Shown: piece by piece, positions 3,719-39,075 of the stretch
Layout: the number at the start of each line of letters is the position of its first letter
Position numbering within the stretch: position 1 is the first letter of the stretch
Made by a program: the position numbers and the translations under genes
Assembly: GCA_963801795.1 (NCBI GenBank)
Contig: CAWDFZ010000005.1
Span: 484,664 to 548,663 of the forward strand
DNA length: 64,000 nt
Reading direction: 5' to 3'
DNA from: Ilumatobacteraceae bacterium
GTDB lineage: Bacteria; Actinomycetota; Acidimicrobiia; Acidimicrobiales; Ilumatobacteraceae
The notes under the pieces: model-generated
Databases searched by the model: none
What the model saw: the letters and a program-made list of their open reading frames with translations, nothing else
What the model was told of the DNA's origin: nothing

Positions 3719-3767
3719 TTCGGTGGCCGTACGATTCGTCGACACGATCTGTAGCCTCGGGAGCCCT

Positions 3768-5942: not shown

Positions 5943-5974
5943 TGCTGTGCCGATGAGTTGGTGAGAGGGCGCCC

Positions 5975-9975: not shown

Positions 9976-11146
9976 ATGTCGGGACGCGGACCTGCAGTGG
10001 TACGTCGACGACCTCGTCGGCTCGGGCGTCCGGCGGGTCCACGTGCTCGCCTGGCGCGACCTCGACGATCCCGACGCCGGCGGGTCCGAGGTGCACGCCG
10101 ACGAGTTCATGCGCCGCTGGGCCGCCGCCGGGCTGGAGATCACGCACCGCACGTCGGCGGCGATCGGCCAACCGGCCACCGCACGACGCAACGGCTACGA
10201 CGTGGTCCGCCGCGGGAGCCGCTACACCGTGTTCCCGCGGGCCGATCGCCGGCGAGATCGACGCGGACGATGGGTCGCTACGACGCCATCGTCGAGATCT
10301 GGAACGGCGTCCCGTGGTTCTCGCCGGTGTGGCGCCGCACGCCGGGGATCACGTTCCTCCACCACGTCCACGGCCCGATGTGGGACCAGATCCTGCCCGG
10401 GCCCACTGGCCTCGTTCGGGCGGGCGCTCGAGGCCCGGCTGGCGCCGCCGTTCTACCGCCGCGGCCTGACGGTGACCCCGTCCGACGCCACCCGGGACGA
10501 GCTGCTCGAACTCGGCTTCCACCCCGATCGGGTCACGGCGATCCCCAACGGCACCGACCCGATGTTCAGCCCGGGCGGGCAGCAAGACGGCGAACCCGTC
10601 GATCGTCGCGGTCGGGCGCCTCGCACCCGTGAAGCGCTTCGAGCTGCTGATCGACTCGGCCGTCACCGCCCGCCGCACGCGTGCCCGGGCTCACGCTGAC
10701 GATCGTCGGGGAGGGGCCCGAACGCGACGCGCTGCGTCGACCTGGTCGACGCGGCGCGACGCCGGCGACTGGGTCCGCTTCGCCGGACGGGTCGACCACG
10801 CCGACCTCGTCGATCTCTACCGGCGCGCCTGGATCGTGGCCAGCGGCTCGCTCGCCGAGGGCTGGGGCCTGAGTCTCACGGAGGGTGCCGGCTGCGGAAC
10901 GCCGGCCGTGGCCACCGACATCCGCGGCCACCGCAGCAGCGTCGTCGACGGCGTCACCGGCATCCTCGCGCGCGCCCGACCGAGCTCGGCGACGCGAACT
11001 GGCCCGTGTCCTGCTCGACGACGCACTCGCGCCTGCGCCTCGGCCAGGCGGCGCTCGAACGGGCCCGCACGCTCACCTGGGACGCCTCGGCGCTCGGGAT
11101 CATCGAGGTCCTGCACCGCGGCGACGTGACCGGTCGGCTGACATGA
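9976..11146 (+). CDS. GT4-family glycosyltransferase, frame-disrupted
   Basis: VHVLAWRDLDDPDAGGSEVHA, PDRVTAIPNGTD, LTIVGEGPERDAL and EGWGLSLTEGAGCGTPAVATD (the GT4 E-x7-E region). Pieces are 9893..10699, 9559..10632, 10629..11129 and 10885..11763. The end is ...HRGDVTGRLT* with TGA at 11144-11146. The start is uncertain (ATG 9976 requires a shift). Confidence 0.8.
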
Positions 11147-16809: not shown

Positions 16810-18347
16810 GCTCGACGGGCGCGGCGGCCGGGAGCGGCGCGAAGGTCGGAGTCCTCGTCGTCGCCTACAACGCCGAGACGACGCTGCGGTGGGTGCTCGA
16901 CCGCATCCCGTCGCCGCTGCGCAGCGAACTGGTCGAAGTGCTCGTGATGGACGACCACTCGGGCGATGCGACGTTCGACGTCGCCCAGGACTACATCGCC
17001 GACGGCACCGACATCCCGCTCACGATCGTGCGGCACGAGGCCAACCTCGGCTACGGCGGGAATCAGAAGGCCGGGTACCGCTACGCCATCGACCACGGCT
17101 GGGACATCGTGGTCCTCCTCCACGGCGACGGCCAGTACGCGCCGGAGAAGATGCCCGACCTGCTGGCGCCGTTCGCCGACGATCGCGTCGACGCCGTGTT
17201 CGGCTCGCGCATGCTCGACCCGGGCGGGGCCCGCCGCGGTGGGATGCCCTGTACAAGTACGTCGGCAACCGGATCCTCACCCGCACCCAGAACGTGATCG
17301 CCGGGGTCCGCCTGAGCGAGTGGCACTCGGGTTATCGCGCCTATCGGGTGTCGGCGCTGGCCGACCTGCCGTTCGTCGGCAACAGCGACGGGTTCGACTT
17401 CGACACCGAGATCATCCTGCAGCTGCTCGGTTCGCACCGCCGGATCGTCGAGGTCCCGATCCCGACGTACTACGGCGACGAGATCTCGCGGGTGAACGGG
17501 ATCGCCTACGCCCGCGACATCGTCCTCGACACGGTCCGCCACCGCCTCGGGGAGGTCGGCTTCGGCCGCGGCGACCTCGGGCGCAAGGACGAGCCCTACG
17601 CGTACAAGCCGTCGCCCGACAGTTCGCACGGCATCGTCCTCGAACTCGTTCCCGACGACGCGCCGCTGCGGGTGCTCGACGTCGGGCTGCGGACCCGGCT
17701 GGGTGGCCGCCGAACTGCGCCGCCGCGGCCATCACGTCACGGGGGTCGACCTGATCGCCGACGAGGGCGTCACCGAGCGGACCGACCGCTTCTTCGAGGC
17801 CGACCTCGAGCAGGGTCTCCCCGACGCGGTCGGCGGCGGGTTCGACGTGGTGATCGCCGCCGACGTGATCGAACATGTCCGCAATCCGGACGAGCTGCTC
17901 GCCGACCTCGCCGGCCGGACGTCACGGACCGGGATGATCATCGCCAGCGTTCCGAACTTCGGCCACTGGTACCCGCGGGCACGGACGGCGGCCGGACTGT
18001 TCGACTACGACCAGCGCGGCATCCTCGACCGGACCCACGTGCGCTTCTTCACCCGGCGCAGCTTCCGGCGGGCGGTGGCCAACACCGGCCTGGTCACCAC
18101 CGCCGAGGAGTACGCCGGGCTGCCGCTCGACGTGCTCGGGGTGGAGGGCGCCGCGGGCACGTTCGTCGCGTTCGTCGATCGCGTGCTGCGCACCGTGTGG
18201 CCGACGATGTTCGCCTACCAGTTCGTCGTGAAGCTGGAGACGGCACCGGCGCTGCTCGAGCCCGTCGTGACGTCGCGTGACGGCGGCCGTACGTCGACGC
18301 GGCCGAGCAGCGCCGCGGCTTGTCGACCGCTGCGGTCGTCAACGTGA
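16806..18347 (+). CDS. GT2 glycosyltransferase fused to a class I SAM methyltransferase domain, frame-disrupted
   Basis: ATG 16806 overlaps the upstream stop (ATGA). The GT2 part has VLVVAYNAE, VMDDHSGD, LLHGDGQY and SGYRAY. The MTase part has LRVLDVG.., DVVIAADVIEHV and IIASVPNFGHWY. Pieces are the tail of 15786..17297, 16889..18280 and 17703..18347. The exact 3' end is uncertain (18280-18347). Confidence 0.75.
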
Positions 18348-20195
18348 TCACGGTCGTGGCCGTGTTGCTGTTCTGGCTCGTGTCGACGTCGTGGCAGCCG
18401 TGGAACCTCCTCGCCCGAGCCGGTTTCAGCGCCGACTTCTACGACGAGCAGGCGAGGGTGTTCCTCCGGGGCCGGCTCGCCGTCGACCCGCGGTTCCGGG
18501 GCCGGAGGGTTTCCTGATCGACGGCGGGACGTACCTGTACTACGGCCCGTTCCTGTCGTTGGTGCGGATGCCGTTCCAGCTGTTCGGCGACTTGTTCACC
18601 TCGCGCCTCGTGCGGCTGTCGATGCTCGTCGCCGTCGTCGTGCTGTGTCGCTGGTCGGCCCGCCTCGCCCGCGCCGCCCAGCGCACGTTCGGTTCGTTCC
18701 GGACCCGTCCCCAGACGAACCGAGCGGACGGGAAGCCGGTCGACGAGCGATGGGTCGTGGGCTTGTTCACGGCGGCCGTGGTGTTCTCGCCGGCGATCTT
18801 CGCCGCCGGGTGGATCAGCGTCTACAACGAGACCGAGCTCTGGGCGTTCACGCTGGCCATCGTGTCGGCCACGCTCGTATCGTGGAGTGGGCCGCCTCGC
18901 AGTTCACGTCGATCCGCCTGCTGATCGGTGCGATCGCTGCCGCGCTCGGCGGCGACATTGACCACGCGCCCCGATCGGGCTCGGCATGGCGTTCGCCATC
19001 GGCGTGTGTGGACTGGTGCTCGCCTGGCGGAACCGGACCGATCGCCGACCTGGCGGCACCCGTACGGCGATCCTGGCGATCGTCGGGGGACTGCTGCCAC
19101 TGGTCGCCCACGCGGCGGTGAACTTCGCCAAGTTCGGCACGCTCTTCTCGGTGCCCGGCGGTCGCCAGGTGCTCTCGTTGCAGGACCCGTCGCGGGCCGA
19201 CTGGTTCGCCGGGAACAACGACAGCTTCTTCTCGCCGCGGTTCCTGACCACCACCGTCGTGCAGTACCTGCGACCGGACGCGATCCGCTTCGAGCGGCTC
19301 GTACCCGGCATCCGGTTCGGCCCGGTCGCGCCGAACCGGGCGTCGTATCCGTTGCTCGGCAACACCCCCTCGTCGTCGCTGACACTCACGGCCACGCTGC
19401 TGTTGATCCTCGCCGTCGTCGGCGCTGTCTGGATCGTCCGCCGGCGAGCGCTCACGTGGGGGTTGGTCGTCGTGTGCACCGCTCGGCGGCGCGCTCCCGA
19501 CGTTCCTCATCGGCTTCCTCGCCCAGCGGTACCTGATCGACATGCTGCCGCCGCTCGCCGTCGCCGGATCGATCGGCGCGTGGGCGATCGGGACGTGGGC
19601 GGTGGGGCGATCGTCGGCTCGTTGGATCGCCGCCGGCGGCGTCGTGCTGGTCGTGTGGGGCGCCTGGGCGAATCTCTCGCTCGCCACGTGGACGCTCGAC
19701 CAGAAGTCACCGGGGTTCACCGAGCTGCGTTATCGGGTCGACGACGCCGTCTTCTCCGGCCCATCACCCGGCCTGATCTCGATCGAACCCGGCTCGCCGG
19801 TGGCCCGTGATGGCATGACGGCGGTCGAGATCGACCCGGATGCGGGCTGCACGGGTGTCTACACCGCCGAACAGGGTGTCTGGGTCGCCGTCGAGCGGGG
19901 ATCCGCACGTCAGGTGACCCAGACCGTGACCGCCGACCGGGTTCCGACCCCGCTCGCCGCCGGCGACGGGTGGGCCGTCGACCTCGACCTGTCCGACCCG
20001 GCCATCGCGCACGTCATCGTCACCGATGGGAGCGGTGCGGTGATCAGCGATCAGCCGGTGCCGAACTGGACCCCGCTCGAGGAGGACGAAGAACGCGACG
20101 TCACCGTGATCGTCGACCCGGTCACCAACACCTCGACGATCACCATCGACACGCGGCGACGCCGGCGACGAGGCCATGCTGTTCCTCCCCGGTGA
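18320..20195 (+). CDS. Polytopic membrane protein, GT-C-like glycosyltransferase candidate, frame-disrupted
   Basis: Pieces are 18320..18517, 18277..18924, 18645..19121, 18986..19810 and 19542..20195. Blocks include FYDEQARVFLRGRLAV, FLIDGGTYLYYGPFLSLVRMPF and many TM helices, with a soluble C-terminal region. Both ends are uncertain (start 18277-18320, end 20195-20281). Confidence 0.55.
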
Positions 20196-24924: not shown

Positions 24925-25632
24925 CTAGGTGCAGGGCTCGGTCGGGGCAACCGATTCAGCGGCCGATCCAGCGCCGTCCGTGGTGTTCCGCTGCTGGTCA
25001 GCGGCGAGATCCGTGGGATTCGGGAGCGGCGGGACGCGGGTGGCGTAGGAGTTCGGCTCGTCGGATCGCCGGAGGACGACCACGCCGACCACGTCACCCG
25101 CTCGGTCGACCACGGGCGATCCACTGTCACCGGGCCGCACCTCGGCCGCCAGCACGAGTGCCCGTCGTTCGTGGACCACGCCGGCGCTGACGTCGTCGAC
25201 GCGCAGGTTCACGACGCGTTCGACCGTCGTCGGCACGTCGCCGTCCGCGGCCACGATCGTCACCGCCGACGACACGCCGACCGGAGCCGGCAAGGCGTCG
25301 TCGATCGTGTCGAACCATCGGCGGGCGGCCTCGATCGTTCGATCGGGGGACGCGTCGGTCGCGACGAGCGCGAGATCCGTTGCGGCCGAGATGGCGACGA
25401 CGCGTGCCGCGCGACCGTCGACCTCCAGGCGCCGGAGCTGGTCGTCGACCACGTGGGCGGCGGTCAGTGCGACCCCGTCAGCGAGCACCGTGCCGACTCC
25501 GAGGCGCGGCTGGGGACGACCGCACGTCTGCGACTCGACCGTCACCACCTCCGGCGCGGCGCCGATCGGCGCGTCCGCGTCGGAACGGCCGCAAGCGACC
25601 AACACGATCGCGGCAGGGACGAGCAGGCCCAT
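24925..25632 (-). CDS. Trypsin-like (S1) serine protease lipoprotein
   Basis: This is the last 236 codons of ORF 24925..28470. ATG 25632 gives MGLLVPAAIVLVAC (lipobox). Active-site motifs are LTAAHVV (His) and GDSGSPVVDRAGDVVGVV (Ser). Confidence 0.7.
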   Translation of the reverse strand: MGLLVPAAIVLVACGRSDADAPIGAAPEVVTVESQTCGRPQPRLGVGTVLADGVALTAAHVVDDQLRRLEVDGRAARVVAISAATDLALVATDASPDRTIEAARRWFDTIDDALPAPVGVSSAVTIVAADGDVPTTVERVVNLRVDDVSAGVVHERRALVLAAEVRPGDSGSPVVDRAGDVVGVVVLRRSDEPNSYATRVPPLPNPTDLAADQQRNTTDGAGSAAESVAPTEPCT

Positions 25633-25670
25633 CAGCCGCCGGCCAACCGCCCGCCGATCGCGTCGCGCGG

Positions 25671-26835
25671 TCACAGTACGAGGATCGCGAGCCCCGACAC
25701 GGCGACCGTCGCGGTGAGCCAACCGATGGCCACTGTTCGGTGCGGGAACGAGTGCCCGGCGAACCGGCTGTTCGACGACGAGATGGAGGCCCGCGGCAAC
25801 GAGGCCCGCCACAGCGACCTTGAGCACGACGAGCCCCCACGACGACATCCCGGTGCGCTCGGGTGTCAGCACGAGGATCACCGGCCAGTGGACGAGGTAG
25901 ATCGAGTAGCTGGCGATGCCCACGGCCGCCAGCGGACGCCAGCCGAGCGCACTGGTGAGACGATTCGGGACGAGCAGCGACAGCACCAGCACGGCGCTGA
26001 CGAGCGAGAGCGCGCTGTAGCCACCGCGCAGGAGCCACGGTGGGTCGTAGTCGTTGGTGAGCGCGAGCACGATGATGGCGGCGAGCGCGACAGCGCCCGC
26101 GGGAGTAGACCACCGCTGCCAACGGTCGATGAGCGCCGGTCGTCGATGCAGGAGGATCGCCAGGCCGCAGCCGGCGAGGATCTCCCCGCCGCGCGTGTCG
26201 GTGCCGAACTCGAGCCGGTACTGCGGTCCGCTGATCAGGAGTTGGGCGGCGAGCGAACCGAACCAGCCGGCGACCACCGCGACCGTCAGCCAACGAATCG
26301 GGTTCCGGCTGCGCCAGCACAGCAGCACCGTGACCGTGAGCAGCACGTAGAACTGCTCCTCGATGGCGAGCGACCAGAACGGTCCGAGCGGCCCGACGAT
26401 CGTGCGGAGGAGCTCGTCGGCACCCGACCAGATCACGTACCAGTTCGTGTAGCCGTACACGCCGGCGAAGGCGTCGGAGGCGATCATGCCGGTCCACGCC
26501 CACGACGACAGGAGGACCACGACGGCGACGACGCACAGCGACGCCGGCCACAGCCGCTTCACCCGGCGCGCCCAGAACCGACCGAAGTCGATGGCGCCGA
26601 TCTGTCCGTCGGGAGCGCCCTCGCGCAGCAGGATGGTGGTGACGAGATATCCCGAGATGGTGAAGAACACCGACACCCCGATGAAACCGCCGGGAGCGAG
26701 CCCCGGAAGTCGTGACGTCGCGCCCGCATGGAACAGCACGACGAGCATGACCGCGATCGCCCGCAGCCCGTCGAGGGAGGGGTGGTAGCGCAGCCGCGTG
26801 GTCGTGGCGACCATCGCCACGTCCGACGCGGTCAT
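25671..26835 (-). CDS. Acyltransferase-3 family membrane protein (OafA-like, no SGNH domain)
   Basis: ATG 26835 overlaps the upstream stop (ATGA). Motifs are LDGLRAIAVMLVVLFH, SVFFTISGYLVT and SYSIYLVHWPV. After a frame change near 25750, a hand-read terminal TM segment, ...RTVAIGWLTATVAVSGLAILVL*, ends at the TGA codon occupying 25671-25673. Confidence 0.8.
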
Positions 26836-29800
26836 GGCGAACCTTTGGAACGATCGGGAAGGTTCGAACGGCGAGGGAGGCTCGACCTTCCGGGAATGAG
26901 CGCCGAGCACGTCAGCAACACCACGCCCAAGCAGTGTCCACGGGTGGAGCCACTCGAAGTGGACCGGAAATCCCGCGTTGGGGAACGGCCGGTCGCGGCG
27001 GACGACGAGGACGACGATGCACTGGGCGACGATCACGATCAGGAACCCGAAGACGGCGAGCAGACGTTGGCGGCGGAGGGCGTAGGCCACGAGCGAAACG
27101 GCGAGCGCGACGGCTCCCCACACCCAGCCGATCAGTACCGCACTCGCGACGGTGGCGATGATCACCGTCGGGACACGGACCGCTTCGGCACGCCAGCGCG
27201 ACGGCGGGAAGGGCCGTGGCACCGGCGCCGGCACGAGCGCGTCACCGTCTCGACGACGATCGGCGACGACCAGGACGATGCAGGCCAACACTCCCAGGAG
27301 CGAAGCGACGAGGGCGACGTTCAAGGTCCGCTGTGCGGTCCAGCGGAACGTGATGGTGGTCGGTTCGTCGGTCGGTCCGACGAACCAACCGTTCGCGTTG
27401 CCGTCGACGAGCGTCGGCGGGCCGAGCGACCCGGCGTCGTCCGATGCCGTCCACGCCGGGTTGTACCCCTCACCGAGCACCACCCAGCACCCTTGCGGAC
27501 ACGGCGACACCTCGACCGTCCGACCGGTCCGCGACGTCGAGGTGACCGTGACGGTGGGAGCGGGTGTCTCTTCGGCGGCCGCGCCGTCGTCCGGCTCGGC
27601 CAGGACGACCTGGTCGACGTGGAACCCCGACCCCGCGCCGGAGATCGACGTGCCGGAGATCGACGTGCCGGTGGTCGAGGTGACCGTGTGGGTTCCGGAG
27701 TCGAGTGCGACCACGGACGAATTGTCGCCGGTGCACAGTGTGGCGTCGATCGGCTCGCCGCGCAGGATGGCATCGGTCGATGCCGTGAACGACAGTCCGA
27801 CCGGCGCGCCGTCGACCTGCAACAGGTCGTCGCGGCACTCATCGACGTGATCGCCGGCCGGTGTCACGCCAGGTGACGTGCCGTCGAAGGTGATCTCCGA
27901 GATCGCGGCGGGCAGCAGGACGGCCTCGCCGAACCGCCGGTCGACGGTGGTCCTGACGTCGACTCCGGTGATCTCGATCGTCGCATCGCGCAGATCGATC
28001 GCGCGGGGGAGTGCCACGTCGGTGCCGGCCGGGTCGACGTCGAGATCGAACGATCCGGCCGGGTCGGAGATCCGGACCTGCGTGATCGGGCTGAACGTCC
28101 CGGCCGGCTGGGCGATCGCGATGGACTCAGCGGTGCCGTCGAGGGCGAGGTGCAGCGACGGCCCGACGGGTGAGCCGAACGGCGTGATCCACGACGTGTC
28201 GGGGTCGCCGTCGACGGCGGACGCCCCGCGGGCACCCGGCACACCCGTGAGGTGAGCCGTCGCCACGACCGGCTCGCCGAGCAGTTCGGCGAGCGCCGGG
28301 TCGTCCATGCGCTGGTCGGCGCGCAGCACGACACTCGTGTCGAACGCGGCATCGTTCGGCACCTCGAACTGCCGGCGCAGTGCCGGGCTCCGGATCGGAC
28401 CTCCAGCGGTCGGTCGGGTCGGTGCGGAGCCGAGTGAACACCATGCTGAGCGGAGTCGTGGCATCCGCACCGTTCATCGCCGTCGTGGCGTCGACCGGCA
28501 CCCGGATCATCTCGGTGGTCGGTTCGAGCCCGACGTCGATCGTGGCGAAGCCCACGCCGCCGACCGCTGTCACCGATCGGCGACACGTCGATCCCCGTGC
28601 CGGTGCCGGTGATCCGCAGCGTGATCCGGCTGCGGCGCCGTGGTCGGGTCGATGTCGATCCGCTGGCCGTCGCCGACGAGCGAGGATTCGTCGAGGGCGA
28701 TCAGCGTCGGGTCGCGATCGTCGACGGTCAGTTCGACTTCCGTGATGCGCCGCTGCCCGTCGACCGTGTCGGGCTGGCGCAGGGTCACGTGGTCGATCGG
28801 TTCGCTCACGTCGAGCACGATGGACTCGTCGAGCGCCGGCCCACGATCGCCGACGGTCCAGCTCGTCGCCGGGTCACCGTCGATCGCCATCACCGGACGG
28901 TGTTCGGGCAGGTAGGCGAACGGTTCGCCGTACGCGCTGGCGGTCGCGGTGACCGGCCCGTCCTGGATCGAGATGGTCTGCGTGTCGGGATCGTCGGTGT
29001 CGAACACGGGCAGCCGTTGGTCGCCGCTCTCGTAGCGCAGCACGCCCGCATCGTCGCCCGCCTCGGTGTAGCCCGTCACGTCCTGCGAGCTGCGCCAGTG
29101 GTGCGCACGGTCACGGTTCGAGTCGGTGACGACCACCCGCGTCGCGTTCGACACGGCATCGCTCGAGCGGCGTCACCGCTGAGCGAGGCGCTGTAGAGGA
29201 TCAGTTCCGATCCGTCGATCACGCCGGCGGCGGCGGCGTCGACGAGCCCGTCGCCGCTGCCCGACAGCACGACCACGGCGTCCTTCGCCCGGATCGTGGC
29301 CACCGGTGCGTCGACGCCGACCAGCGACACCGTGGCGAGCGGTTCACCGACGCGGGGGTCGCTGACGGACTGTTCGTCGACGACCGGGATCGCGCCGATG
29401 TTCGGTGCCGGTCTCGCCGAACCGCTCGGGCGGGAGCAGACCGGCGTCCGCCGCTCCGGCGCCGGTGAGCAGATCGTCGACGATCTCGGGTCGGGCGAGG
29501 CGGAAGCGGTCGAAGGCGACGTCGTCGGCCACCCAGATCGTGTCGACACCGAGCAGCCGGGCGACCGGCGCGATCGCATCGACGTCGACCACGCCGTCCT
29601 GGAACCGATCGTCCAGGGCGAACACGAGATCCATCGCCGCGGCGCTGCCGAGCGGCAACAGGTCGCGGGTGAGCAGCGGGCGCTCCGTCAGCGCCGGCAA
29701 CGGCTGGTCGACGGTGTAGCCCCAACGGAACGCACCGAACTCGCCGCCGGGCAACTGGAGGACCCGGTAGCCGGCGGGCAGCGAGTCGAGGTGCGCCGCG

Positions 29801-31176
29801 GCGTCGAGCCACGCCTGCGGCGGATCCTGGTCGCGTTCGAGTTGGGGGTCGACGAACCCGCCGTTGCGCAGCGACGGGAGATAGCCGACCGCCAGCAACG
29901 CGATCACGACCGCGCTCACCGCACCGCAGGTCCAAACATGTCGCATGGGGTCAGGCACTTCGCGACGTTGCACGCCGACGGCCCGGCAGTCGGATCGACC
30001 CGCAGGCCGCCACGAGCGAGGCCGCACTCAGGGCCGAGCCCGAACACGAGCACCGGCACGGCGCGGGTGCTGCTGCGCAACGCCAGCGCGAGCCCACCTT
30101 CGCCGTCACCGAGCAGCGACCGACATCAGCGGCGACGGATCGTCGATCGGGTGGACCCCGACGGCGAGCACCAGCCCCGAACCGATCAGCAAGGCGACGT
30201 AGCGGCGGTGCTGCCACGTCGTGAACACCAGGCCGCTCAGCACCACGGCGAGCAGGCCGACCCCGAACACGATCACCCGGGTGGACGCGAGGTAGTCGAG
30301 CGAGGCCGTCGTGGTGGCGCCGAACGCGTCGCGGATGTAGAACAGCCAGTAGCCCAGACCGCGCAGGACCTCCGTCGACGTCGACGTGAACGACACCGAC
30401 TCGAGCGACTCGGAGTAGGCGAGCACGTCGGCGCCGTGCTTGCCCTGGATCATCAGCATCGCGATCCACCACAACGACACGGCGATCGAGAGCACGGCCA
30501 CCTTCGCCGCGGTGGCGAGCGCCCGCCGCCACGTGATCGACCGTTGCCAGACGGCGTGGACGAGCCACAGCGCCGGTGCCGGGATGATCATCGCCAGCGC
30601 GGTGGCGTTGACCGCGCCGACGGTGAGCACCACGAGCGCCACGCCGGCCGCGAACCGCCATCGCCCGCGCTGCGCCGCGAGCACCGTGAGGCCGACGATC
30701 CACCCGAGCCCGGCGTACGGGAGGAGCAGGATCGACGTGCGCGACACGTAGGGGAGGATGTACGGCGAGAGCTGGTAGACGATCGCCGCGGCGAGCGCGG
30801 CGGTCGGGCCCGAGCCCGAGCAGCCGCGCCACCCAGCGCACGCCGAGGCCGGCGGCGAGGAGCAGCGTGCCGACCCAGAGTCGATGGGCGAGCCAGTCGG
30901 GGACGCCGATCGCGCTCGAAGAACCAGAACCACGGGCCCATCGGCCACAGGTAGGCGATGTGCTGGTGCGGCACCCACCCGGCGTACTGGCGGGGGTCGA
31001 ACGTGAACGTCGTTGTCGCCGAGGAAGCGGCCCGGGTTCAGGTACACGTAGAGCTTGGAGTCGGACGGCATCCGCCCCGGCGCCGCGGTGAGCGCGGGCA
31101 CGTACGCGAGGAGCACCAGCACCGCCACCGACACCGCCGACTGACGGCGGGCGAGCCACCGGCGGAACTCGTTCAA
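26832..31176 (-). CDS. AftD-family alpha-(1->3)-arabinofuranosyltransferase-like GT-C (DUF3367-type), ~1450 aa, frame-disrupted
   Basis: TTG 31176 overlaps the upstream stop (TTGA). The N-terminal polytopic domain has DSKLYVYLNPGRF, VYQLSPYILPYVSRTSILLLPYAGLGW and GLGYWLFYIRD. The large extracytoplasmic part has two discoidin-like repeats (AIDGDPATSW, AVDGDPDTSW), and TM helices close the protein. It is chained from 30106..31665, 29951..31159, 29344..30027, 29076..29579, 28570..29154 and 24925..28470. The last stretch, read by hand, ends at the TGA codon occupying 26832-26834. Confidence 0.8.
27638..27682. repeat. 15-bp tandem repeat inside the AftD-family CDS (encodes GTSIS x2)
   Basis: ccggagatcgacgtg occurs twice, followed by a diverged third unit, ccggtggtcgaggtg. 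Confidence 0.8.
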
Positions 31177-32224
31177 CGTGCCTCGGGCAGCAGGCTCGAC
31201 CAGCGCTTCACGATCGACAGCACGCCTTGACGGGCGCTGCGACGGTGGTGCGAGGCGCCGGCATCGTCGACCGTCGCCCGATTGGCGACGAACCAGTCGT
31301 AGCTCTGGGCGAACATGTCGGCGGTCGACCACGCCGGGCGTCCAGGCGAGGCTCCGCTGCAGGTGGTCGAGGTCGAACCACATCGACTTCGAGTACATCA
31401 TCCAGTGGTACGGCGCGAACGGGGAGATGCCGAGCGCGGCACTGAGCCGCATCCCGAGCGACGCCGGCGCCGCCGGCAGCGAGCGGACCGTGGCGCCCGT
31501 GCCGGCGTGCTCGCAGAGGTCGGCGAGCGTCTCGCGCATCGTGCCGAACCGGTCGGTGCCGACGTTGAAGATGTCGGGACCTTCGGTCGCCGCGGCCCGG
31601 ACGCACGCCTCGGCGAGATCGTCGGAGTGGACGAACTGGTACCGGTTGGTCCCGTCACCGAGCACGATCGGGTCGTACGCCGTCGGCGATCCAGTCGAAC
31701 AGGATGCCGAAGATGCCGAGCCGGCCGTGACCGAGGATCGTGCGCGGGCGCACGATCGACACGTCGAGACCGTCGCGGGCGGCGGCGAGGCAGGCCCATT
31801 CGGCGGCGAGCTTGGCGTGCCCGTACGCCTCCATCGGCGACGGCACCGTGGTCGGCATCACCGGGTTCGACTTCGGAACGCCGAACACCGCGCTCGACGA
31901 CGTGTGGATGACCTTGGCCACACCGGCCGCGGCGCTCGCACCGAGGAGGTTCGCGGTGCCGTCGACGTTGACGGTCCGCAGCAGTTCGGCGTCGCGGGCG
32001 AGCGGCACCTGGGCCACGTTGTTCATCACGACGTCGATGCCCTCGACCGCACCGCGCACGACCGCCATGTCGCGAACGTCGCCGCGCACGAACTCGACGT
32101 CGGACGGACGGTCGGACGCGTCGTTCAGGTCGAGCACGCGCACGCGGTTGCCGGGCGTGGCGAGGCGGGCGACGAGGAGCGAACCGAAGTACCCGCTGCC
32201 ACCGGTGACGAGGTAGCTCGTCAC
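31173..32224 (-). CDS. NAD-dependent epimerase/dehydratase (extended SDR), frame-disrupted
   Basis: GTG 32224 gives VTSYLVTGGSGYFG (GxxGxxG), and YGHAKLAAE is the YxxxK motif. Pieces are 31655..32326 and 30106..31665, then a hand-read ...SIVKRWSSLLPEAR* ending at the TGA codon occupying 31173-31175. Confidence 0.8.
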
Positions 32225-32237
32225 CGCTGCACGCCAA

Positions 32238-33320
32238 TCACAACTGAATGCCGTTCTCGATGCACCAGCGGATGCTGCGGCGCATGCCGTCGTACAACTC
32301 GACGGCGGGTTCGTAGCCGAGGTCACGGCGGGCGGCGTCGATGTCGACGGCGATGGTCTTGTTCATCTCGCCGAGCACGTGCAGCTGCTGGTACGTAGCG
32401 GCCGGAACCCTGCAGGACGCCGTCGAGACGTCTCGGCGACGTCGCCGGTGAACTCGGGGAGGCGGAACCGGTTGCGCTTCACGTCGGCGAAGCCCTCGTC
32501 GCGCGAGCGCGCGCCCGACCGTGTCGACGATCTCGGCCACCGTGTAGGGACGGGCGTCGGCGATCCACCAGGCGAGGCCGGCGTCGGTCGGGGTGAGCTC
32601 GGCCCGCACGATGCCGTCGACGAGGTTGTCGATGTAGACCATCGAGCGGCGCTGACCTCCGTCGCCGAACACCGGGAACCGGCCGGTCCGCACGAGGGTG
32701 AAGAACGTGGTCTGGCGGGCGGGTTGGTGCGGCCCGTAGAACCACGGCGGCCGCACCATCACGACGTCGAGCCCACGTTCGGCCGCCTCGAGCACCCGGA
32801 GTTCGGCCTCCATCTTCGAGCGCCCGTAGCCGAGATACGGGTGATACGGCTCGTCGTTGCGGAACGAGTCACGCCGTTCCGGGTTCGTGCCGAACGGGCT
32901 GTTCGACGACACGTGCACCATGCGCCGCACGCCGCCGGCCGCTGCACCGGCGAGCACGTTGACGGTGCCCACGTGGTTGACCTGCTCGAACTCGTCGATC
33001 GATGCCGGGTGGATGACGCCGGCGGCGTGCACCACGTCGACGGTCCCGGTCAGCCCCGCGAACAGCCGGTCGATCGTGTCCCGCCGGCTGATGTCGCCGA
33101 CCACGACCTCGACGGTCACATCGGCGCCCTCGGTCAGCGCGAGCAATCGCGCCTCGTCGTCGCGGTCGTGGACCAGGAGGCGGAGCCGTCCGCTGCGGCG
33201 CCGCTCGCCGTCGCCGGAGAACGCGGCGACCAGGCCGGTGCCGAGCCAACCGCCGGCACCCGTGATCACCGTCGTGTCCGGGAGTTCGATCGGGCCGGCC
33301 GGGCTCATGCCGTCCGTCAT
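32238..33320 (-). CDS. NAD-dependent epimerase/dehydratase (extended SDR)
   Basis: This is the tail of ORF 32238..34064. ATG 33320 overlaps the GMC stop (TGATG). Motifs are VITGAGGWLG and YGRSKMEAE (YxxxK). An Arg-rich stretch at ~32400-32520 suggests a compensated double frameshift. Confidence 0.8.
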   Translation of the reverse strand: MTDGMSPAGPIELPDTTVITGAGGWLGTGLVAAFSGDGERRRSGRLRLLVHDRDDEARLLALTEGADVTVEVVVGDISRRDTIDRLFAGLTGTVDVVHAAGVIHPASIDEFEQVNHVGTVNVLAGAAAGGVRRMVHVSSNSPFGTNPERRDSFRNDEPYHPYLGYGRSKMEAELRVLEAAERGLDVVMVRPPWFYGPHQPARQTTFFTLVRTGRFPVFGDGGQRRSMVYIDNLVDGIVRAELTPTDAGLAWWIADARPYTVAEIVDTVGRALARRGLRRREAQPVPPPRVHRRRRRDVSTASCRVPAATYQQLHVLGEMNKTIAVDIDAARRDLGYEPAVELYDGMRRSIRWCIENGIQL

Positions 33321-35108
33321 CACTTCGACCGCCGATCGGCGAAGCGGCGGGCGTTGCGGATCGCGACGGCCATCACCGACGCCTGCGGGTTCACACCGGG
33401 CGCATCCGGCAGCAGCGAGGCGTCGTTGACGTGGACGTTGCGCGCCCCGTGCACCGTTCCGAAGCTGTCGGCGGCGCAGCGCGCCGGCCGCTCGCCCATC
33501 GGCACGGTCGAGCACAGGTGGACCGTCATCACACTCGCCGACGACGCGGCGAAGGCGGTCGTCATCGCCGCGAGATCGGCACGGTTCCGGATGCTGGGGG
33601 CGTCGCGGAACGAGGGGTACACCTCGACGGCGTCGGCTTCGAGCATCAGCAGTGCGAGGCGGGCGAGGCCCTGGCCGAGGAGATGCCGGTCGCGTTTGGT
33701 GAGCCGGTACGTGACGATCGGGTCGCGGAGGCCCGGCACGGCCTGCACCCAACCACGGCCCTGGCTCGTGATCGCCGCGTAGTAGACGGCGATCTGCGGC
33801 CACTCGGTGATCGCCGCGCCGAAGGTCCGCCAGTTGTCGCTCAGGGCGAGGGCGATCAGTCCGGGATGGCTGGCCGAACCGCCGAAGGAGATGTCGGGCG
33901 AGAACTCCTTCACCTGGTGCACCGGCACGTCGTCGGGCACGTTCATCTCGGTGTCGAAGCGGGCCGCCAGCTTCACCGTCGGGTGGACGGCCAGCGTGCG
34001 ACCGACGCGGTGACGGAACCCGGCCCGTTGGAGGATCGCCGGGGTCTGGATGGCGCCGGCACACACGAACACGTCACGGAACGCGATCGTGACGGTGTTC
34101 GGCGTCTCGCCGCTGCGGTCGGTCAGCTCGGCGGTGACGGCCCGATCGCCGTCCATCACCAGGCGATCGAGACGATGCTCGACGAGCAGCCGCGCTCCGG
34201 CCCGCTGGGCGCGGGGGAGATACGTGACGGTCATGCTCTGGCGGCGACCGTCGACGGCGTTGCCCCGCTCGGGATAGGCCATCCACCGTGGGATCTCGTC
34301 GTGCTTCCAGCCGAGGCGCTCGGCACCGAGGCGGAGCTTCTCGCTCGGGGCGGTGTGCTCGCCGGGCACGGGTTGCACGCTGAGCGCCTGCTCCACCTCG
34401 TCGCAGATCGCCTCGATGTCGTCGGAGGCGAAGTCGGCGATCCCGTACTCGGTGCGCCACCGTTCCAGCGTCTCGGCCGGGGGACGCCGGTAGAGACCGC
34501 TGTTCACCTCGGTGCCACCGCCGGCGCAACGACCCTCGGTGTAGGCGATCGAGGGGAGTCCGAGGGCGACCGTGACGCCACCGGAGCGGTACTGGCGGTC
34601 CATCTGCTCCAGCGAGAACGGCACGACCGAGCCCTGCTCCACCCACGGCCCTTCCTCGACCACGATCACGTCGAGGCCGGCCTCGGCGAGGATCGCCGCC
34701 GTCGTGGCTCCGCCCGCGCCCGAGCCGATGATCAGGACGTCGCAGTCGTACCGGACCGGCGCGGTCACGACGAGGCTCCCGAGCTCGTCGTGGCCGGCCA
34801 CGTCTCCCACACGAACGCGTAAGCCGAGCGAACGGATGAGGCGCGGATACTCGGCGAGGAGGGGGAGCGGCTTCGATCCGACGAACGAGATCACCCGGTC
34901 GCAGGCCGACGATCCGGCTGATCGCGTCGAGCGTGAAGGCGATGACGACGACGCCGAAGCGGGTGAACGACGGAAGCACCGTGATGCGCCCTTCGATGAA
35001 CGCGATCGTCGTCGCGCGTCGCTGCGGATCGAGGTCGGGGAGGTCGATCGCGAGCAGCGCGTCGGCGAAGCGCCCCACCGGCGGAGAGATCGACGACGGC
35101 AGACGCAT
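33320..35108 (-). CDS. GMC-family FAD oxidoreductase with a ~140-aa N-terminal extension
   Basis: ORF 33320..35128 carries DVLIIGSGAGGATTA (GxGxGG), AGGGTEVNSG, VHPTVK and ...GARNVHVNDASLLPDAPGVNPQ. The N-terminal extension is in the frame of 34074..35216 (MRLPSSISPP...FGVVVIAFTLDAI, from ATG 35108), with one frame change near 34900. Confidence 0.8.
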
Positions 35109-35187
35109 GGGGTTCCGAATCGTAGCAATCAGGCCCTCCTGATCAGGTGCGGGCTTGATCTGGAGTGCGTCGATCAGGCCCGGTCGT
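35109..35187. promoter_or_regulatory. Lower-GC 79-nt spacer with a repeated GATCAGG-like motif and a small hairpin
   Basis: atcagg-ccct-cctgat forms a hairpin at 35128-35143. gatcagg occurs at 35141-35147 and 35172-35178, with a variant gatctgg at 35157-35163. The function is unknown. Confidence 0.2.
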
Positions 35188-35943
35188 TCAGGTCTCGTCG
35201 ACCGTCCGATAGGCACGCCGGCGACGCTTCAGGCTGACCATGTCCTGGACGCCCCAGATCGTGACGAGCCAGAACGCCTCGGCGATGATCGGCAGCCCCA
35301 TCTTCGATGCTCCGGCCACGCGGTCGGTGAAGGAGATCGGCACCTCGACGACGCTCAGGCCGGAACGCACCACCCGATACGTCATCTCGACCTGGAACCC
35401 GTATCCGCTCGCCTGGACACCGTCGATCCCGATGGCGCGCAACGTGTCGGTCCGGTAGACGCGGAAACCGGCGGTCGCGTCGTTGATCGCGAGACCCAGC
35501 ATGATGGCGACGTAGCGGTTGCCCCAGCGTGACAACCAGGTGCGCCGGTGGGGCCATCCGGTCACCGTGCCACCCGGGATGTACCTCGATCCGATCACGA
35601 GCGCGATGCCCCGCTCGGCGAGATCGAGCATCATCGGCAGCATCGACGGGTCGTGGGAGAGGTCCGCGTCGAGCTGCACCACGGCGTCGTACTGCTCGTC
35701 GAGGGCGATGCCGAACGCGTGCAGGTAGGCGTCCCCGAGACCGCGCTTGGCGTCACGCTCGATGATGCGCAGGGCGGGGTCGGCCGCGGCGAGTGCGTGC
35801 ACGATCGAGCGGGTGTCGTCGGACGACGCGTCGTCGACGACCAGCACGTCGGTGGTCGGCAACACGTCCCGCAACTCGCTGATGAGACGCCCGATGTTGT
35901 CGGCCTCGTTGTGGGTCGGCACGACGACGAGCGGGCGGATCAC
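35188..35943 (-). CDS. Polyprenol-monophosphomannose synthase-like GT2 (second Ppm1/DPM1-type paralogue)
   Basis: This is the C-terminal 251 codons of ORF 35188..37095. GTG 35943 overlaps the upstream stop (GTGA). Motifs are LVVVPTHNEADNI, VLVVDDASSDDT, QLDADLSHDP, VIGSRY and TDRVAGASKMG. Confidence 0.85.
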   Translation of the reverse strand: MIRPLVVVPTHNEADNIGRLISELRDVLPTTDVLVVDDASSDDTRSIVHALAAADPALRIIERDAKRGLGDAYLHAFGIALDEQYDAVVQLDADLSHDPSMLPMMLDLAERGIALVIGSRYIPGGTVTGWPHRRTWLSRWGNRYVAIMLGLAINDATAGFRVYRTDTLRAIGIDGVQASGYGFQVEMTYRVVRSGLSVVEVPISFTDRVAGASKMGLPIIAEAFWLVTIWGVQDMVSLKRRRRAYRTVDET

Positions 35944-37228
35944 GGAATCGCCCCGAACACCGCGTACAGCCCGGTGAGCACGGCGATGCCTGCACCGCCG
36001 AGCACGAGCGTCATGTCCCACCCGGTCGTGGCCCAGTCGAGCCGGTCGTCGGCATCGGCTGCGCCCTCTGCCAGCCCTGCGCTCGCTCGCTGCCGTTCCG
36101 GCCACCAGGCGGCGACGGCGATGATGAGCGGGAACGCGGTGATCAAGAAGCGGGGACGGGCCGTGACGGTCTGGGTCACCAGCATCAGACCGACGACGAC
36201 GGCGCGAGTACGAGGCCAGCACGGGATGCAGCCGGACCTTCCAGGCGCACCAGACCATCGCCACCAGCGCGATCATCGACACAGCGGTGAGGGCGTCGGT
36301 CGGCGACGACAGCGGGTGGATGAAGAACTCAGCGGTGTTCGACACCGCGGTGGCGCCGTAGCTCGTCCCTTCCGACCAGGCCTCGCGCTGGACGCGGAAC
36401 CACGCGCCCCGCTCGCCGGCCGTGTGGTCGACGTACAGCTGGAAGAGGATGAAGCCGAGTGGCGCCAGCACGACCGCCACGAGCGAGCCCCAGGCGCGGG
36501 TCCGGCGGATCGCCAGGAAGCTGGCGACCGCGCAGGCGGCCACGAGCGCCAGCCCGTTGGGTCTGGTGGCGGTGCCGAGCATCGCGGCGATGCCGGCGAG
36601 CCACCACTGCTCGCGGAGCAGGAACAGCAGACATGCCGCGGCGAGCACGATCAGGGTCGCCTCGGAGTACGTGAACGACAGCACGAAGCTGCCGGGGAAC
36701 ACGGCGAACAGCACCATCGCCCGGGAGGCGACGCGCACGCCGTACAGCTCCCGGGCGAGGAGGCCGACGAGCAGCACGGCAACGGCGCCGAGCACGAGGT
36801 TCAGCATGATCGCGGCGAGCGTGTCGCCGCCGGGGAGCACCACGTCGACGGCACGGGCGAGCCACGGATACACCGGGAAGAACGCCGCGCGCGCCTCGTT
36901 CTGGCCGTACGTGATGTTCGGCGGGATCGAGCTCGGATACCCGTCCCGGATGATCGCGAGGTACCAGCGGCCGTCCCACGACGTCAGCACCTCGGCGATG
37001 GTGTGCGCCGCGCTCGGTTCCTGCGGCGTCGACTCCGGCGAGCCGGGCGAGCTGGCGGCTGTCGACCACCATCTGTGCGGCGCGCACGCCGGCACCGGCG
37101 AGCACGCACAGTCGGGACACGACGTAGGCGATGAGCCCGACGATCATCGCGCGGTGCCAGTCGGTGAGGCGTCGCATCGGTGCGTCCGGGGTGGGCGATG
37201 GAGCGGTGGTCGTCGGTTCGGTCATCAT
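35940..37228 (-). CDS. GT-C membrane glycosyltransferase, PIG-V/Mannosyl_trans2-like, frame-disrupted
   Basis: Motifs are WDGRWYLAIIRDGY and FFPVYPWLAR, with ~9 TM helices. Pieces are 36329..37309 (MMTEPTTT..., ATG 37228), 35188..37095 (N-terminal two-thirds) and 35940..36185. Confidence 0.7.
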
Positions 37229-37232
37229 CGAT

Positions 37233-38209
37233 TCACCAGCGCGACATCGGCAGGATTCGTTGACGCGGACCGAATTTCGGGGCCCGGTGCCCGTGCCGCA
37301 ACAGGGCACGGATGACGCGGCCGCGCTGGCCGGCGTACGGCGACAGGAGTTCGAGCATGCGTTCGTCGGTGGCGCGGGCCTCGCCGGCGAGGGCGAACCC
37401 GATGACGTTCTTCAGGTGGTAGTCGCCGACGGCGACCGCGTCGGGGTCGCCCATCGCGGTCGCCGAGCACGGTCCCGACCGTCCACGCTCCGACTCCGGG
37501 CAGCAGCCGCAGCTTGCCGGCCGCGACATCCGGCGGCGAGGTCGGCCCATTCCCAGAGCCGGGCGGGATGCCGCGCGATCTCGACGAGGGCCATCGCCCG
37601 CTTGCGCTCGATACCGAGCGGATGGAACCACCAGGCCGGGCGGCCCAGCAGGCGTTCGGGCGCCGGCGGGAGGAGGAGCCCGGGGAACGGACCGGGCGCG
37701 GGCTCGCCGAGCTCGACGCACAGACGTCGCCACTGCCGATGCGCTTCGTGGCCGGTGATGCGCTGCTCGACGATCGTCGGGAGCAGCTCGTGGTAGAGGT
37801 TCGAGCTGGCACCGATCGCGACGTCACGCGACGCGTGCAGGGCTGAGGTGACCGTCGGCGACCACCCGGCGGTGTCGACGCCCGCGAGGCCGGTGTCGTC
37901 GCTGCCGAGCATCCGCGGGATGCGCCCGGCGAGCCACTCGCCTCCGCTCCCGTAGCTGTCGACGTCCCATCCGTCGCGGTCGGGGCCGTGACGGCTCCAG
38001 CGGACCCGGACCGTTCCGGGCCCGTCGGGGGTGAGCGTGGCGTGCAGGAACGTTCCCGAGGCGGTGCGGCCACGGCCGACCGAACGGAGCACCGTGGTGG
38101 GATCGGTCCGGCCGTGCCGGAACGGCGCCAGCGTGGCGGCGATCGAGGTGAACGGTGTGTCGAGCGGACTGAGCGCGGGCACCGGTGTGGGCAGAGCGAC
38201 CGCAGGCAT
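37233..38209 (-). CDS. DNA-3-methyladenine glycosylase II family (AlkA-like, HhH-GPD), frame-disrupted
   Basis: LLPGVGAWTVGTVLG is the HhH motif, and GDPDAVAVGDYHLKN carries the catalytic Asp region. Pieces are 37412..38494 (from ATG 38209), 37225..38271 and 37233..37733. Confidence 0.75.
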
Positions 38210-38269
38210 CCGGGCGACGGTACCAGCCGCGAATCGTCGCAACGAAGCACCATCAGCAACGATGCAGCC

Positions 38270-39075
38270 ATGTCCGAAGTGGAACGCCACGAACCACGCG
38301 CCGGTGTGGTGCAACTGACGCTGAACCGTCCGGATTCGCTGAACGCGATGACGACCGGGCATGGTGGAATCGCTGCACCGCCACCTCGACGAGATCGCCG
38401 TCGACCCGGTCGCCCGAGTGGTGATCCTCACCGGGGCCGGACGAGGGTTCTGTTCCGGGCTCGACCTCGGCGGGTACGGAGCGGCACCCGACACCGATCA
38501 CCTCGGTCCGACCCAACGCGGGCTTCGCCGTGCAGAAGCACATCGCCACCCTGATCCCGCACCTGCGCTCGCTCCCGCAGCCGGTCATCGCCGCGGTCAA
38601 CGGCCCGGCCGCCGGCGGGGGATTCGCCCTCGTCCTCGGCTCCGACGTGCGCCTCGCCGCCGAGTCGGCCAAGTTCTCGGCCGCGTTCATCAAGATCGGC
38701 TTGTCGGCGTGCGACATCGGCACCTCGTGGTTGCTCCCGAGGCTCGTCGGTGCGGCGCGATCACAGGAGCTGATGCTCACCGGCCGGGTGTTCGGTTCCG
38801 AGGAGGCGCTGCGCATCGGTCTCGTGATCGAACGCGTCGCCGACGCCGACCTGGCTGATCTCGCCCTCGCCAAGGCCGAACTGATCATGTCCAACACGCC
38901 GTTCGGGGTCGCGCTCACCAAGGAGGGGATGTGGACGGCCCTCGAGATCCCGGGCATGCAGGCCGCCATCGACCTGGAGAACCGTCAGCAGATCATGGCC
39001 TCCGCCACCGCCGACCACCGCGAGGCGATGAGGGCGTTCCTCGAGAAGCGACCGCCCGAGTTCCGCAACGCCTGA
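38270..39075 (+). CDS. Enoyl-CoA hydratase/isomerase (crotonase) family, frame-disrupted
   Basis: VVQLTLNRPDSLNAM, ILTGAGRGFCSGLDL, AAVNGPAAGGGFAL and EAMRAFLEKRPPEF. Pieces are 37988..38554 (from ATG 38270), 38361..38858 and 38530..39075. Confidence 0.85.

Follow-up and report, generated by a model that had tools for sequence, protein, structure and literature searches.

A GMC flavoprotein and two extended SDRs in an Ilumatobacteraceae glycosylation operon: a possible non-homologous counterpart of the DprE1/DprE2 epimerase

What might a flavoprotein and two short-chain dehydrogenases/reductases (SDRs) be doing, closely packed on one strand, between a candidate polyprenyl-phosphate-sugar synthase and a glycosyltransferase of the AftD family? 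This is the question raised by an operon within a stretch of 64,000 nucleotides (nt) from an Ilumatobacteraceae bacterium (assembly GCA_963801795.1, contig CAWDFZ010000005.1, positions 484,664 to 548,663 of the forward strand; hereafter, the window), for which an earlier note had proposed a second lipid-linked sugar epimerisation module analogous to DprE1/DprE2. The reading arrived at here, to which we would give about an even chance of being right, is that the region is one operon serving to glycosylate a cell-envelope glycan outside the cytoplasm, with polyprenyl-phosphate sugars as donors, and that its core redox module converts a polyprenyl-phosphate sugar to its stereoisomer as a non-homologous analogue of the DprE1/DprE2 pair.

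The genes of the operon are all on the minus strand. Direct reading of the sequence bore out the order of genes and each of the five junctions described in the earlier note, and Pfam bore out the families it had named (GT2, GMC, two extended SDRs, AftD); its description needs amending, however, in that only the GT2 gene and the GMC core are intact in the window, a small gene had been overlooked and the operon is longer. The operon starts with a PMT_2-like GT-C (35940..37228; frameshifts near 37030 and at 36206, with an uncertain start, the equivalent of the start in the homologous locus L002 being at 37135; L-numbers denote homologous loci from other genomes), the stop of which overlaps the start of the GT2 gene in a GTGA at 35943-35940. 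The GT2, a candidate polyprenyl-phosphate-hexose synthase of the DPMS/Ppm type (35188..35943; 251 amino acids (aa), intact, no transmembrane (TM) segment), ends with a TGA at 35190-35188, and there follow a 79-nt spacer (35187-35109) and an ATG at 35108. The spacer is thus where it had been placed, but the gene behind it is not GMC: this ATG opens a small, conserved gene of its own (34765..35108; ~113 aa, Gluconate_2-dh3-like small subunit, frameshifts near 34902 and 34825), the TGA stop of which overlaps, in a GTGA at 34768-34765, the GTG start of the catalytic subunit of a GMC-family FAD dehydrogenase (33320..34768; 482 aa). The spacer of the window carries a 16-nt private insertion at 35166, and that of the relatives is shorter (20 nt in L107). 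A TGATG (33322-33318) joins the GMC stop to the start of SDR2 (32238..33320; extended SDR, three compensating 1-nt insertions at 32391-32508), a 13-nt gap (32237-32225) separates the latter from SDR1 (31173..32224; extended SDR, frameshifts at ~31678 and ~31335), and the SDR1 stop shares a TTGA (31176-31173) with the start of the AftD-family GT-C with its carbohydrate-binding domains (26832..31176; ~1420 aa, at least ten 1-nt indels). The operon continues past 26832, an ATGA at 26835-26832 coupling the AftD stop to the start of an acyltransferase-3 (AT3) membrane protein (25655..26835, end approximate). At the other end, a 361-codon frame upstream (37415-38497) had no Pfam match and was left out of the operon.

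The same order is found among called genes in L107-L109, namely GT-C (PMT_2), GT2, small open reading frame (ORF) of 113-124 aa, GMC of 481-482 aa, SDR2, SDR1, AftD of 1402-1440 aa and AT3, with junctions that are mostly 4-nt overlaps; the terminal AT3 is present in L107 and L109, and L108 has a divergent GT2-GtrA gene in its place. In this Ilumatobacteraceae relative the gene in question (17768-18919, minus strand, convergent to AftD) encodes a GT2 fused to a GtrA-like TM domain, possibly an additional lipid-linked donor synthase or a flippase of the same system.

As for the flavoprotein, its catalytic subunit scores far above both Pfam thresholds of the GMC family (GMC_oxred_N, 121.5 bits, threshold 23; GMC_oxred_C, 65.8 bits, threshold 24.6), is 94% identical without gaps to its L002 counterpart, and has the FAD motif GSGAGG, invariant in the alignment, along with a C-terminal H431 (HLCST.PMG) and N474 (PGVNPQ), both invariant in 24 GMC sequences, which may be the GMC catalytic His and its His/Asn partner. 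The AF2 model (pTM 0.77, pLDDT 69) had the large subunit of fructose dehydrogenase, C-glycoside 3-oxidases, choline oxidase and the FAD-GDH gamma-alpha complex as its top Foldseek matches, and PDB sequence searches with GMC and both SDRs gave only distant generic matches. Enzymes of the gluconate 2-dehydrogenase/fructose dehydrogenase type oxidise sugar hydroxyls. The NCBIfam models do not make the protein a choline or cholesterol oxidase, as it scores 60-77 bits with BetA (cut-offs 605-732) and 35 bits with cholesterol oxidase (cut-off 850). A long-chain alcohol oxidase, which the presence of an N-terminal extension had suggested, was considered and dropped: the PDB searches do not support it, and the extension is a Gluconate_2-dh3 domain.

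That extension is in fact the small gene, so the "N-terminal hydrophobic extension" previously ascribed to GMC does not stand; the gene is called separately in relatives (113-133 aa) and is present in 72 of 80 Acidimicrobiia loci, and the 113-aa ORF of L002 is matched in the window in three frames. Aligned by hhalign with the N-terminal extensions of ~600-aa GMC homologues, the small ORF gives a probability of 95.8% (E 6.9e-9), and seven of the eight split small ORFs of other phyla pass PF13618 (Gluconate_2-dh3) at 25-47 bits against a threshold of 23.4, covering nearly the full model, although the small-subunit profile found nothing significant in the PDB. Such features suggest a two-subunit flavoprotein of the sugar-dehydrogenase type. 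In the small ORFs the domain begins at residue 5-45, leaving no room for a Tat signal, and the RRxF motif is absent from them; no TM segment was found in GMC or the SDRs, and no cytochrome gene is among the conserved neighbours of the module. A cytoplasmic location would fit, since the small subunit has no room for a Tat signal and GMC and the SDRs have no TM segments.

The two SDRs are extended enzymes of the Epimerase family (SDR1, 349 aa, 138 bits with Pfam Epimerase for an intact orthologue; SDR2, 371 aa, 95 bits) that both keep the GxxGxxG and YxxxK motifs, those of SDR2 having been read from the L002 orthologue. SDR1, matched by its L002 counterpart in three frames at 94% identity, is the most conserved member of the module, with 43-60% identity retained in other phyla, and a natural GMC+SDR2 fusion exists in P0148, a homologous protein from the GMC search. 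The best NCBIfam models, all sub-threshold, are HpnA, OleD and SdmB, with SDR1 reaching 106 bits with HpnA (cut-off 368) and SDR2 96.7 bits with OleD (cut-off 580). Ordinary UDP-hexose 4-epimerases or dTDP-sugar enzymes, which had been named as the outcome that would undo the epimerisation idea, are not what was found, the scores with GalE being 72 bits for SDR1 and 31 for SDR2 (cut-off 262) and those with RmlB 55-59 (cut-off 365).

The extent to which these genes travel together was followed in 80 Acidimicrobiia loci, 72 of which have enough flank for the GMC-SDR2-SDR1 trio and 55 of which have full flanks for the neighbours. The trio is present in 70 of the 72, whereas, among the 55, GT2 is found in 47, AftD in 34, the PMT_2-like GT-C in 33, a GT4 in 28, a DprE1-like gene in 18 and UbiA in 12. 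Beyond the class, an exhaustive search gave 955 clusters of GMC homologues at E<1e-30, a part of which, ~600 aa long, are natural fusions of the small subunit and GMC, and the trio is kept at 38-60% identity in Verrucomicrobiota, Acidobacteriota, cyanobacteria, Eremiobacterota, Binatia, Deltaproteobacteria and Myxococcota: in a set dominated by Verrucomicrobiota it is seen in 11 of 19 loci, and in a set of 26 loci from Binatia/Deltaproteobacteria/Myxococcota it is seen in every locus whose contig reaches past SDR1, with L133 and L134 showing one SDR only. The linkage is therefore strongly conserved across genomes, although not for the whole of the GMC, SDR, Ppm and AftD set for which co-occurrence had been proposed as a check: GMC and the two SDRs hold together, but GT2 is usually missing outside Actinomycetota and AftD is a lineage-specific neighbour. 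The conserved unit is the small subunit, GMC, SDR2 and SDR1.

What this unit is accompanied by elsewhere proved informative as to its possible substrate. Clustering of the neighbours of 33 non-actinobacterial trio loci showed the commonest partner to be an HAD+UbiA fusion (12 loci), which is directly upstream of GMC in most Verrucomicrobiota loci and matches NF006088 with 616-633 bits, the next-best family being decaprenyl-phosphate phosphoribosyltransferase, the cut-off of which is passed by a stand-alone UbiA in L097. A YfhO-type GT-C occurs in 8 of the 33, in some cases fused to a sulfatase/LtaS-like domain, Acyl_transf_3 and LPG_synthase_TM occur in three each, most of the other loci have unannotated proteins with 10-12 TM segments adjoining the module, and no DprE1-/DprE2-like genes lie within 10 kb in the non-actinobacterial loci. 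In two deltaproteobacterial loci (L124, 4818-8528, and L131, 13562-15712) the YfhO-type GT-C beside the module is fused to or adjoins sulfatase/LtaS-like domains, a pairing that hints at a teichoic-acid-like or phospho-glycerol-containing acceptor polymer. A gene for apolipoprotein N-acyltransferase (Lnt) directly follows SDR1 in L081 (14070-15737), L105 and L086 (two Verrucomicrobiota and one unclassified); in mycobacteria, an Lnt-like protein is either a neighbour of Ppm1 or fused to it, and by that analogy the position of Lnt next to SDR1 may be no coincidence.

The module is also carried by rhizobial symbiosis plasmids (L136, pNGR234a, 299625-307690; L137, pMLa; L138, pRCCGE531b). On pNGR234a and pRCCGE531b, SDR1, an SMR transporter, the small ORF and GMC are accompanied by a divergent run of a 658-aa polytopic protein, SDR2 and HAD-UbiA, with no GT2, and on the pMLa plasmid of M. 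japonicum an IS110 element interrupts the locus. The NGR234 locus is a few kb from nodS and from an IS21 element, the latter having been listed as regulated by nod-box 13 (PMC10970691).

A published precedent for such partners exists. In Citrobacter youngae, undecaprenyl-P-ribofuranose is the product of ORF15, in which an HAD phosphatase forms the N-terminal part and a UbiA-like synthase the C-terminal one; the pentofuranose is then added to the glycan by means of a flippase and a GT-C, and auxiliary epimerases set which pentose is added, the SDR ORF13 leading to xylofuranose (Xylf) and DprE1/E2 to arabinofuranose (Araf) (Kelly et al. 2024, PMC11127046). The module-linked HAD-UbiA has the domain order (HAD, then UbiA) of this polyprenyl-phosphoribose synthase (PPPRS), and a PPPRS with HAD, a flippase and a GT-C, i.e., the three components that define such systems, are all found in the orthologous rhizobial and Verrucomicrobiota loci. 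Moreover, CP032687.1, the Rhizobium sp. CCGE531 plasmid carrying the module, is among the candidate three-component pentofuranose systems of SI Fig. S12 of that study, the legend of which states that some of the listed systems have "multiple different epimerases" (PMC11127046); a GMC enzyme, small subunit or oxidoreductase is mentioned neither in its text nor in its SI text. The window itself has a UbiA without an HAD domain, 30 kb from the module, and none of the genes of the operon was recognised as a flippase.

The order of events that we would propose from family membership, the fusions and the conserved neighbourhood, substrate included, is as follows. The four proteins of the redox module (small subunit, GMC, SDR2 and SDR1) would act at the cytoplasmic face of the membrane, where the two-subunit flavoprotein would oxidise a secondary hydroxyl of the ring to a ketone (the part played by DprE1) and SDR2, the occasional fusion partner of GMC, would reduce the ketone from the opposite face with NAD(P)H (the part played by DprE2), with SDR1 either inverting a second centre on its own, in the manner of C. 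youngae ORF13, or serving as a second reductase. After flipping to the other side of the membrane, the product would serve the AftD-like and PMT_2-like GT-Cs, and the glycan would, after transfer, be O-acylated by the AT3 protein. As substrate, polyprenyl-P-ribofuranose or -arabinofuranose supplied by the UbiA/DprE1/DprE2 set at 1.7-5.9 kb of the window would be the likeliest candidate, yielding a second pentofuranose donor; a pentofuranose appears more likely than the hexose of the GT2 because the commonest cross-phylum partner is the HAD-UbiA phosphoribosyltransferase and because the rhizobial loci are self-contained without a GT2. The oxidise/reduce route to a second lipid-linked donor that had been put forward earlier is in this way strengthened as an idea, by the sugar-dehydrogenase-type flavoprotein, the GMC+SDR2 fusion and the pentofuranose-system neighbours, whereas the hexose that it was thought to act upon gives way to the likelier pentofuranose. 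A narrower proposal, which we regard as unlikely, is that the module is a widespread DprE1/DprE2 counterpart making a pentofuranose donor other than Araf, two inversions of polyprenyl-P-ribofuranose giving lyxofuranose, or one giving xylofuranose; no solved glycan structure contains lyxofuranose, as Kelly et al. point out (PMC11127046).

A number of points weigh against conversion of a lipid-linked sugar to its stereoisomer. Support for it comes from genomic context throughout; the Foldseek E-values, obtained with a model of pLDDT 69, are all ~1e-20, so that sugar, choline and sterol oxidases cannot be told apart by the fold of GMC; and the small ORF of Ilumatobacteraceae has no direct Pfam match, its link to PF13618 being transitive. 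Canonical Gluconate_2-dh3 enzymes are, besides, periplasmic and respiratory. The adjacent synthase in this lineage is a DPMS-like GT2 (47/55) and not UbiA, with UbiA/DprE1/DprE2 being 25-30 kb off, and many Binatia and delta-type loci are without HAD-UbiA within 10 kb. Lastly, the second SDR is left unexplained, because epimerisation of one centre needs one reductase, and an oxidase with two reductases fits a net reduction equally well.

The GT2 is what keeps the hexose version alive in the lineage of the window. According to it, the module would epimerise a polyprenyl-P-hexose (mannose/glucose) made by the adjacent GT2, and the product would be the donor for the AftD-like or PMT_2-like GT-C, which is compatible with the GT2 being directly upstream in the operon, or divergent, in 47 of the 55 Acidimicrobiia loci, with GT2 orthologues of 42-44% identity lying near the trio in two deltaproteobacterial/Binatia loci, with the GT2 being closest to Dol-P-Man synthase, and with the general habit of sugar-dehydrogenase-type flavoproteins of taking hexoses. 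Outside Actinomycetota, however, the trio is usually accompanied by an HAD-UbiA phosphoribosyltransferase instead of a GT2, and the rhizobial loci are complete without one; L131, moreover, has GT2 and HAD-UbiA together, so the former is no replacement for the latter, and GT2 could equally form an independent two-component pair with the PMT_2-like GT-C, all of which makes the hexose version, in our estimation, distinctly improbable. The tendency of one oxidase and two reductases to suit a net reduction better than an epimerisation leads to another reading, by which the module would modify the lipid carrier or some other membrane lipid, e.g., by oxidising polyprenol to polyprenal, with two reductions then giving an alpha-saturated dolichol-like carrier. 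Polyprenyl phosphate is used by all the conserved partners, Lnt, LuxC/LuxE and LPG_synthase_TM are neighbours in some loci, and the best SDR models (OleD, HpnA, SdmB) act on lipids, but these are sub-threshold matches with scores far under the cut-offs, the small subunit and the fold matches indicate sugar dehydrogenases rather than alcohol oxidases, a likeness of GMC to long-chain alcohol oxidases is not supported by any tool, and no carrier kinase/phosphatase is conserved alongside; little credence is thus given to it. Even less is given to the SDRs being nucleotide-sugar enzymes that feed a cytoplasmic glycosyltransferase, with a separate role for GMC, despite both belonging to the NAD-dependent epimerase/dehydratase superfamily, despite UDP-glucose 4-epimerases and dTDP-glucose dehydratases being among the nearest solved structures (E 1e-15 to 1e-24), and despite a GT4 being a frequent neighbour (28/55 loci): both SDRs miss every curated nucleotide-sugar equivalog cut-off widely, the GMC-SDR2-SDR1 order is constant across phyla and the GMC+SDR2 fusion exists, and the partner synthase uses PRPP and no nucleotide sugar (PMC11127046).

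Regarding the remaining genes of the operon, the GT-C at its start had been called PIG-V-like, an assignment that finds no support: the 393-aa orthologue passes PMT_2 (32.7 bits, gathering threshold 26.1), with a weak match to GT87, and the PIG-V model (Mannosyl_trans2) gave no match at E<=0.01. The protein has ~8 TM-like segments and is called as a gene of 411-436 aa in L107-L109, and the intact L002 orthologue matches the window in three frames by tblastn. The GT2 (Glycos_transf_2, 99 bits) has the Dol-P-Man synthase of P. furiosus as its best PDB match (5mlz, 2.3e-26), followed by ArnC and GtrB at 1e-6 to 1e-7, and its best NCBIfam models (AglJ, Dol-P-hexose transferase, PpgS) all stay far below their cut-offs. 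AftD is recognised by GT-C_AftD (PF11847) with 94.5 and 66 bits for the window fragments and 288 bits for the intact L002 orthologue, and this orthologue aligns full-length with M. abscessus AftD (6w98, residues 8-1410, 2e-44). The AT3 gene (Acyl_transf_3, 102 bits) is, in L107, a 392-aa gene overlapping AftD by 4 nt; in the window (24925-26835, minus strand) frameshifts have removed stop codons, and Acyl_transf_3, a Trypsin_2-like protease and the end of AftD therefore form a single ORF of 1181 codons, although L107 has them as distinct genes.

Elsewhere in the window lies a classical decaprenyl-P-arabinose set, on account of which the word "second" in the original proposal was apt. It comprises, on the plus strand, a UbiA-type phosphoribosyltransferase (~1700-2930; tblastn with the UbiA of L033), a DprE1-like gene (3561-5136; tblastn, Pfam FAD_binding_4 and ALO) and a DprE2-like gene (5194-5933; tblastn), all three frameshifted, and is followed by an AT3 (5957-7324), an SGNH gene (7328-8101), a polytopic membrane protein on the minus strand (8186-9800), a GT4 (9983-11116) and two more polytopic membrane proteins (11979-13832 and 13538-15505). 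The proteins of the operon are of other kinds: its flavoprotein matches GMC_oxred_N/C only, and not the FAD_binding_4 (PF01565) and ALO (PF04030) of DprE1, and SDR1 and SDR2, at 349 and 371 aa, are extended enzymes and not the short classical SDR of ~254 aa that lies downstream of DprE1 as DprE2.

Could the operon, given so many frameshifts, be decaying in its source organism, its genes being pseudogenes? The window has 70% G+C, and its closest relatives are metagenome-assembled genomes of Ilumatobacteraceae (Acidimicrobiia), with GMC aa identities of 97% (L020), 94% (L002) and 93% (L001). A five-way DNA alignment of the window, L020, L002, L001 and L003 over 21.5 kb revealed 56 insertions (51 of them of 1 nt) and 11 deletions private to the window, which are scattered along the entire aligned stretch rather than over the cluster alone and are densest in ABC-transporter genes at 38-44 kb. 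Within 23284-44774 of the window there is ~1 private 1-nt indel per 320 nt, mainly an insertion and with no homopolymer association, and the same load probably extends to the whole window, so that ORF-based readings of it are unreliable. L020 has 55 private indel events of the same kind; L002 and L001 have 16 and 12, of which no more than about a dozen shift the frame and hardly any are 1 nt long, and L003 has 34, half of them in-frame and all but three longer than 1 nt. At least 17 private frameshifting indels fall between 26.9 and 37.1 kb, leaving GT2 and the GMC core as the only intact ORFs of the cluster: no single ORF covers the AftD gene, intact L002 proteins match by tblastn in three frames for GT-C, the small ORF and SDR1 and in at least three for AftD, and there are further out-and-back shifts inside single frames. 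These indels, and the fact that some 1-nt ones (e.g., that at 34902) recur in the independent assembly L020, are what decay would have in its favour. The genes flanking the cluster at 38-44 kb, ABC-transporter genes among them, are, however, hit at least as densely, the out-of-frame parts keep 90-100% aa identity with intact relatives, and noise of this kind is seen in L020, but not in L001, L002, L003 or L107, so genuine decay seems exceedingly improbable, and a pseudogene cluster was rejected in view of the window-wide indels. Since the orthologues of all cluster genes are intact in L002 and L107-L109, the indels are window-wide and the shifted segments are so well conserved, the frameshifts are best regarded as assembly/sequencing errors. 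Random errors, though, would not be shared, and therefore those 1-nt frameshifting indels that are common to the window and L020 (34902, 37030 and 38358 among others) would reflect systematic base-calling errors or, alternatively, real changes specific to the lineage.

How the module would compare with what is already known is best seen against the DprE1/DprE2 2'-epimerase of Mycobacterium (NoeH/NoeO in Azorhizobium), with which it would share oxidation by a flavoprotein and reduction with inversion by an NAD(P)H-dependent SDR, on a polyprenyl-P-sugar, and does share the company of a UbiA-type phosphoribosyltransferase, a phosphatase, a small flippase and GT-Cs including AftD. The two are, nevertheless, not homologous, DprE1 being of the VAO type and DprE2 a classical SDR of ~254 aa, as opposed to GMC with a small subunit and two extended SDRs of ~350 aa here; the noeCHOP arabinosylation genes were considered as a possible instance of the module and rejected as classical DprE-type. 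Membrane FAD sugar dehydrogenases (gluconate 2-dehydrogenase, fructose dehydrogenase, Burkholderia FAD-GDH gamma-alpha, glycoside 3-dehydrogenases) are the top structural matches and likewise combine a GMC catalytic subunit with a small subunit of the PF13618 family, but theirs is a periplasmic, usually cytochrome c-coupled enzyme with a Tat-signalled small subunit, serving respiration/catabolism, whereas the enzyme here leaves no space for a Tat signal, lacks a cytochrome gene, is obligately paired with two SDRs and stands in a context of glycan biosynthesis. The AftD of Mycobacterium and Corynebacterium has the same N-terminal GT-C domain, carbohydrate-binding modules and C-terminal TM helices, the difference being that the host here belongs to Acidimicrobiia and not Mycobacteriales and that the gene is coupled to AT3 and the redox module. 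The three-component systems of C. youngae O1/O2 are alike in their HAD(PRP)+UbiA(PPPRS), SMR/MATE flippase, GT-C and an extended SDR acting on a lipid-linked pentose, and unlike in that the epimerases described are the single SDR ORF13 or DprE1/E2, and in that the operon of the window has GT2 in place of HAD-UbiA and GT-Cs that are AftD-like and PMT_2-like (PMC11127046).

Literature searches found nothing on GMC enzymes in polyprenyl/decaprenylphosphoryl epimerisation, nor on the y4n genes of NGR234, and neither the families of the enzymes involved and their small subunit, nor the pairing of the SDRs, nor the wide distribution is described in the literature searched. Recurring as it does in many phyla next to enzymes of lipid-linked ribose synthesis, the module is probably an undescribed route between lipid-linked sugar donors. 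To our knowledge, only two enzyme solutions to the epimerisation of lipid-linked sugars exist, DprE1/DprE2 and the single SDR ORF13, the first of which includes, in DprE1, a major tuberculosis drug target. If the proposed function holds, the module would add a third one, which draws on other protein families and occurs in seven phyla or more, and would widen the chemistry of extracytoplasmic glycosylation; it would also assign a role to a group of unannotated genes beside nodS on the NGR234 symbiosis plasmid, where it is genetically testable, and would predict new envelope sugars in abundant, little-studied soil/freshwater bacteria (Ilumatobacteraceae, Verrucomicrobiota, Binatia). Should the lyxo-/xylofuranose proposal be the correct one, hitherto unknown pentofuranose glycans would be expected in Acidimicrobiia, Verrucomicrobiota, Binatia and Myxococcota, as well as from rhizobial symbiosis plasmids.

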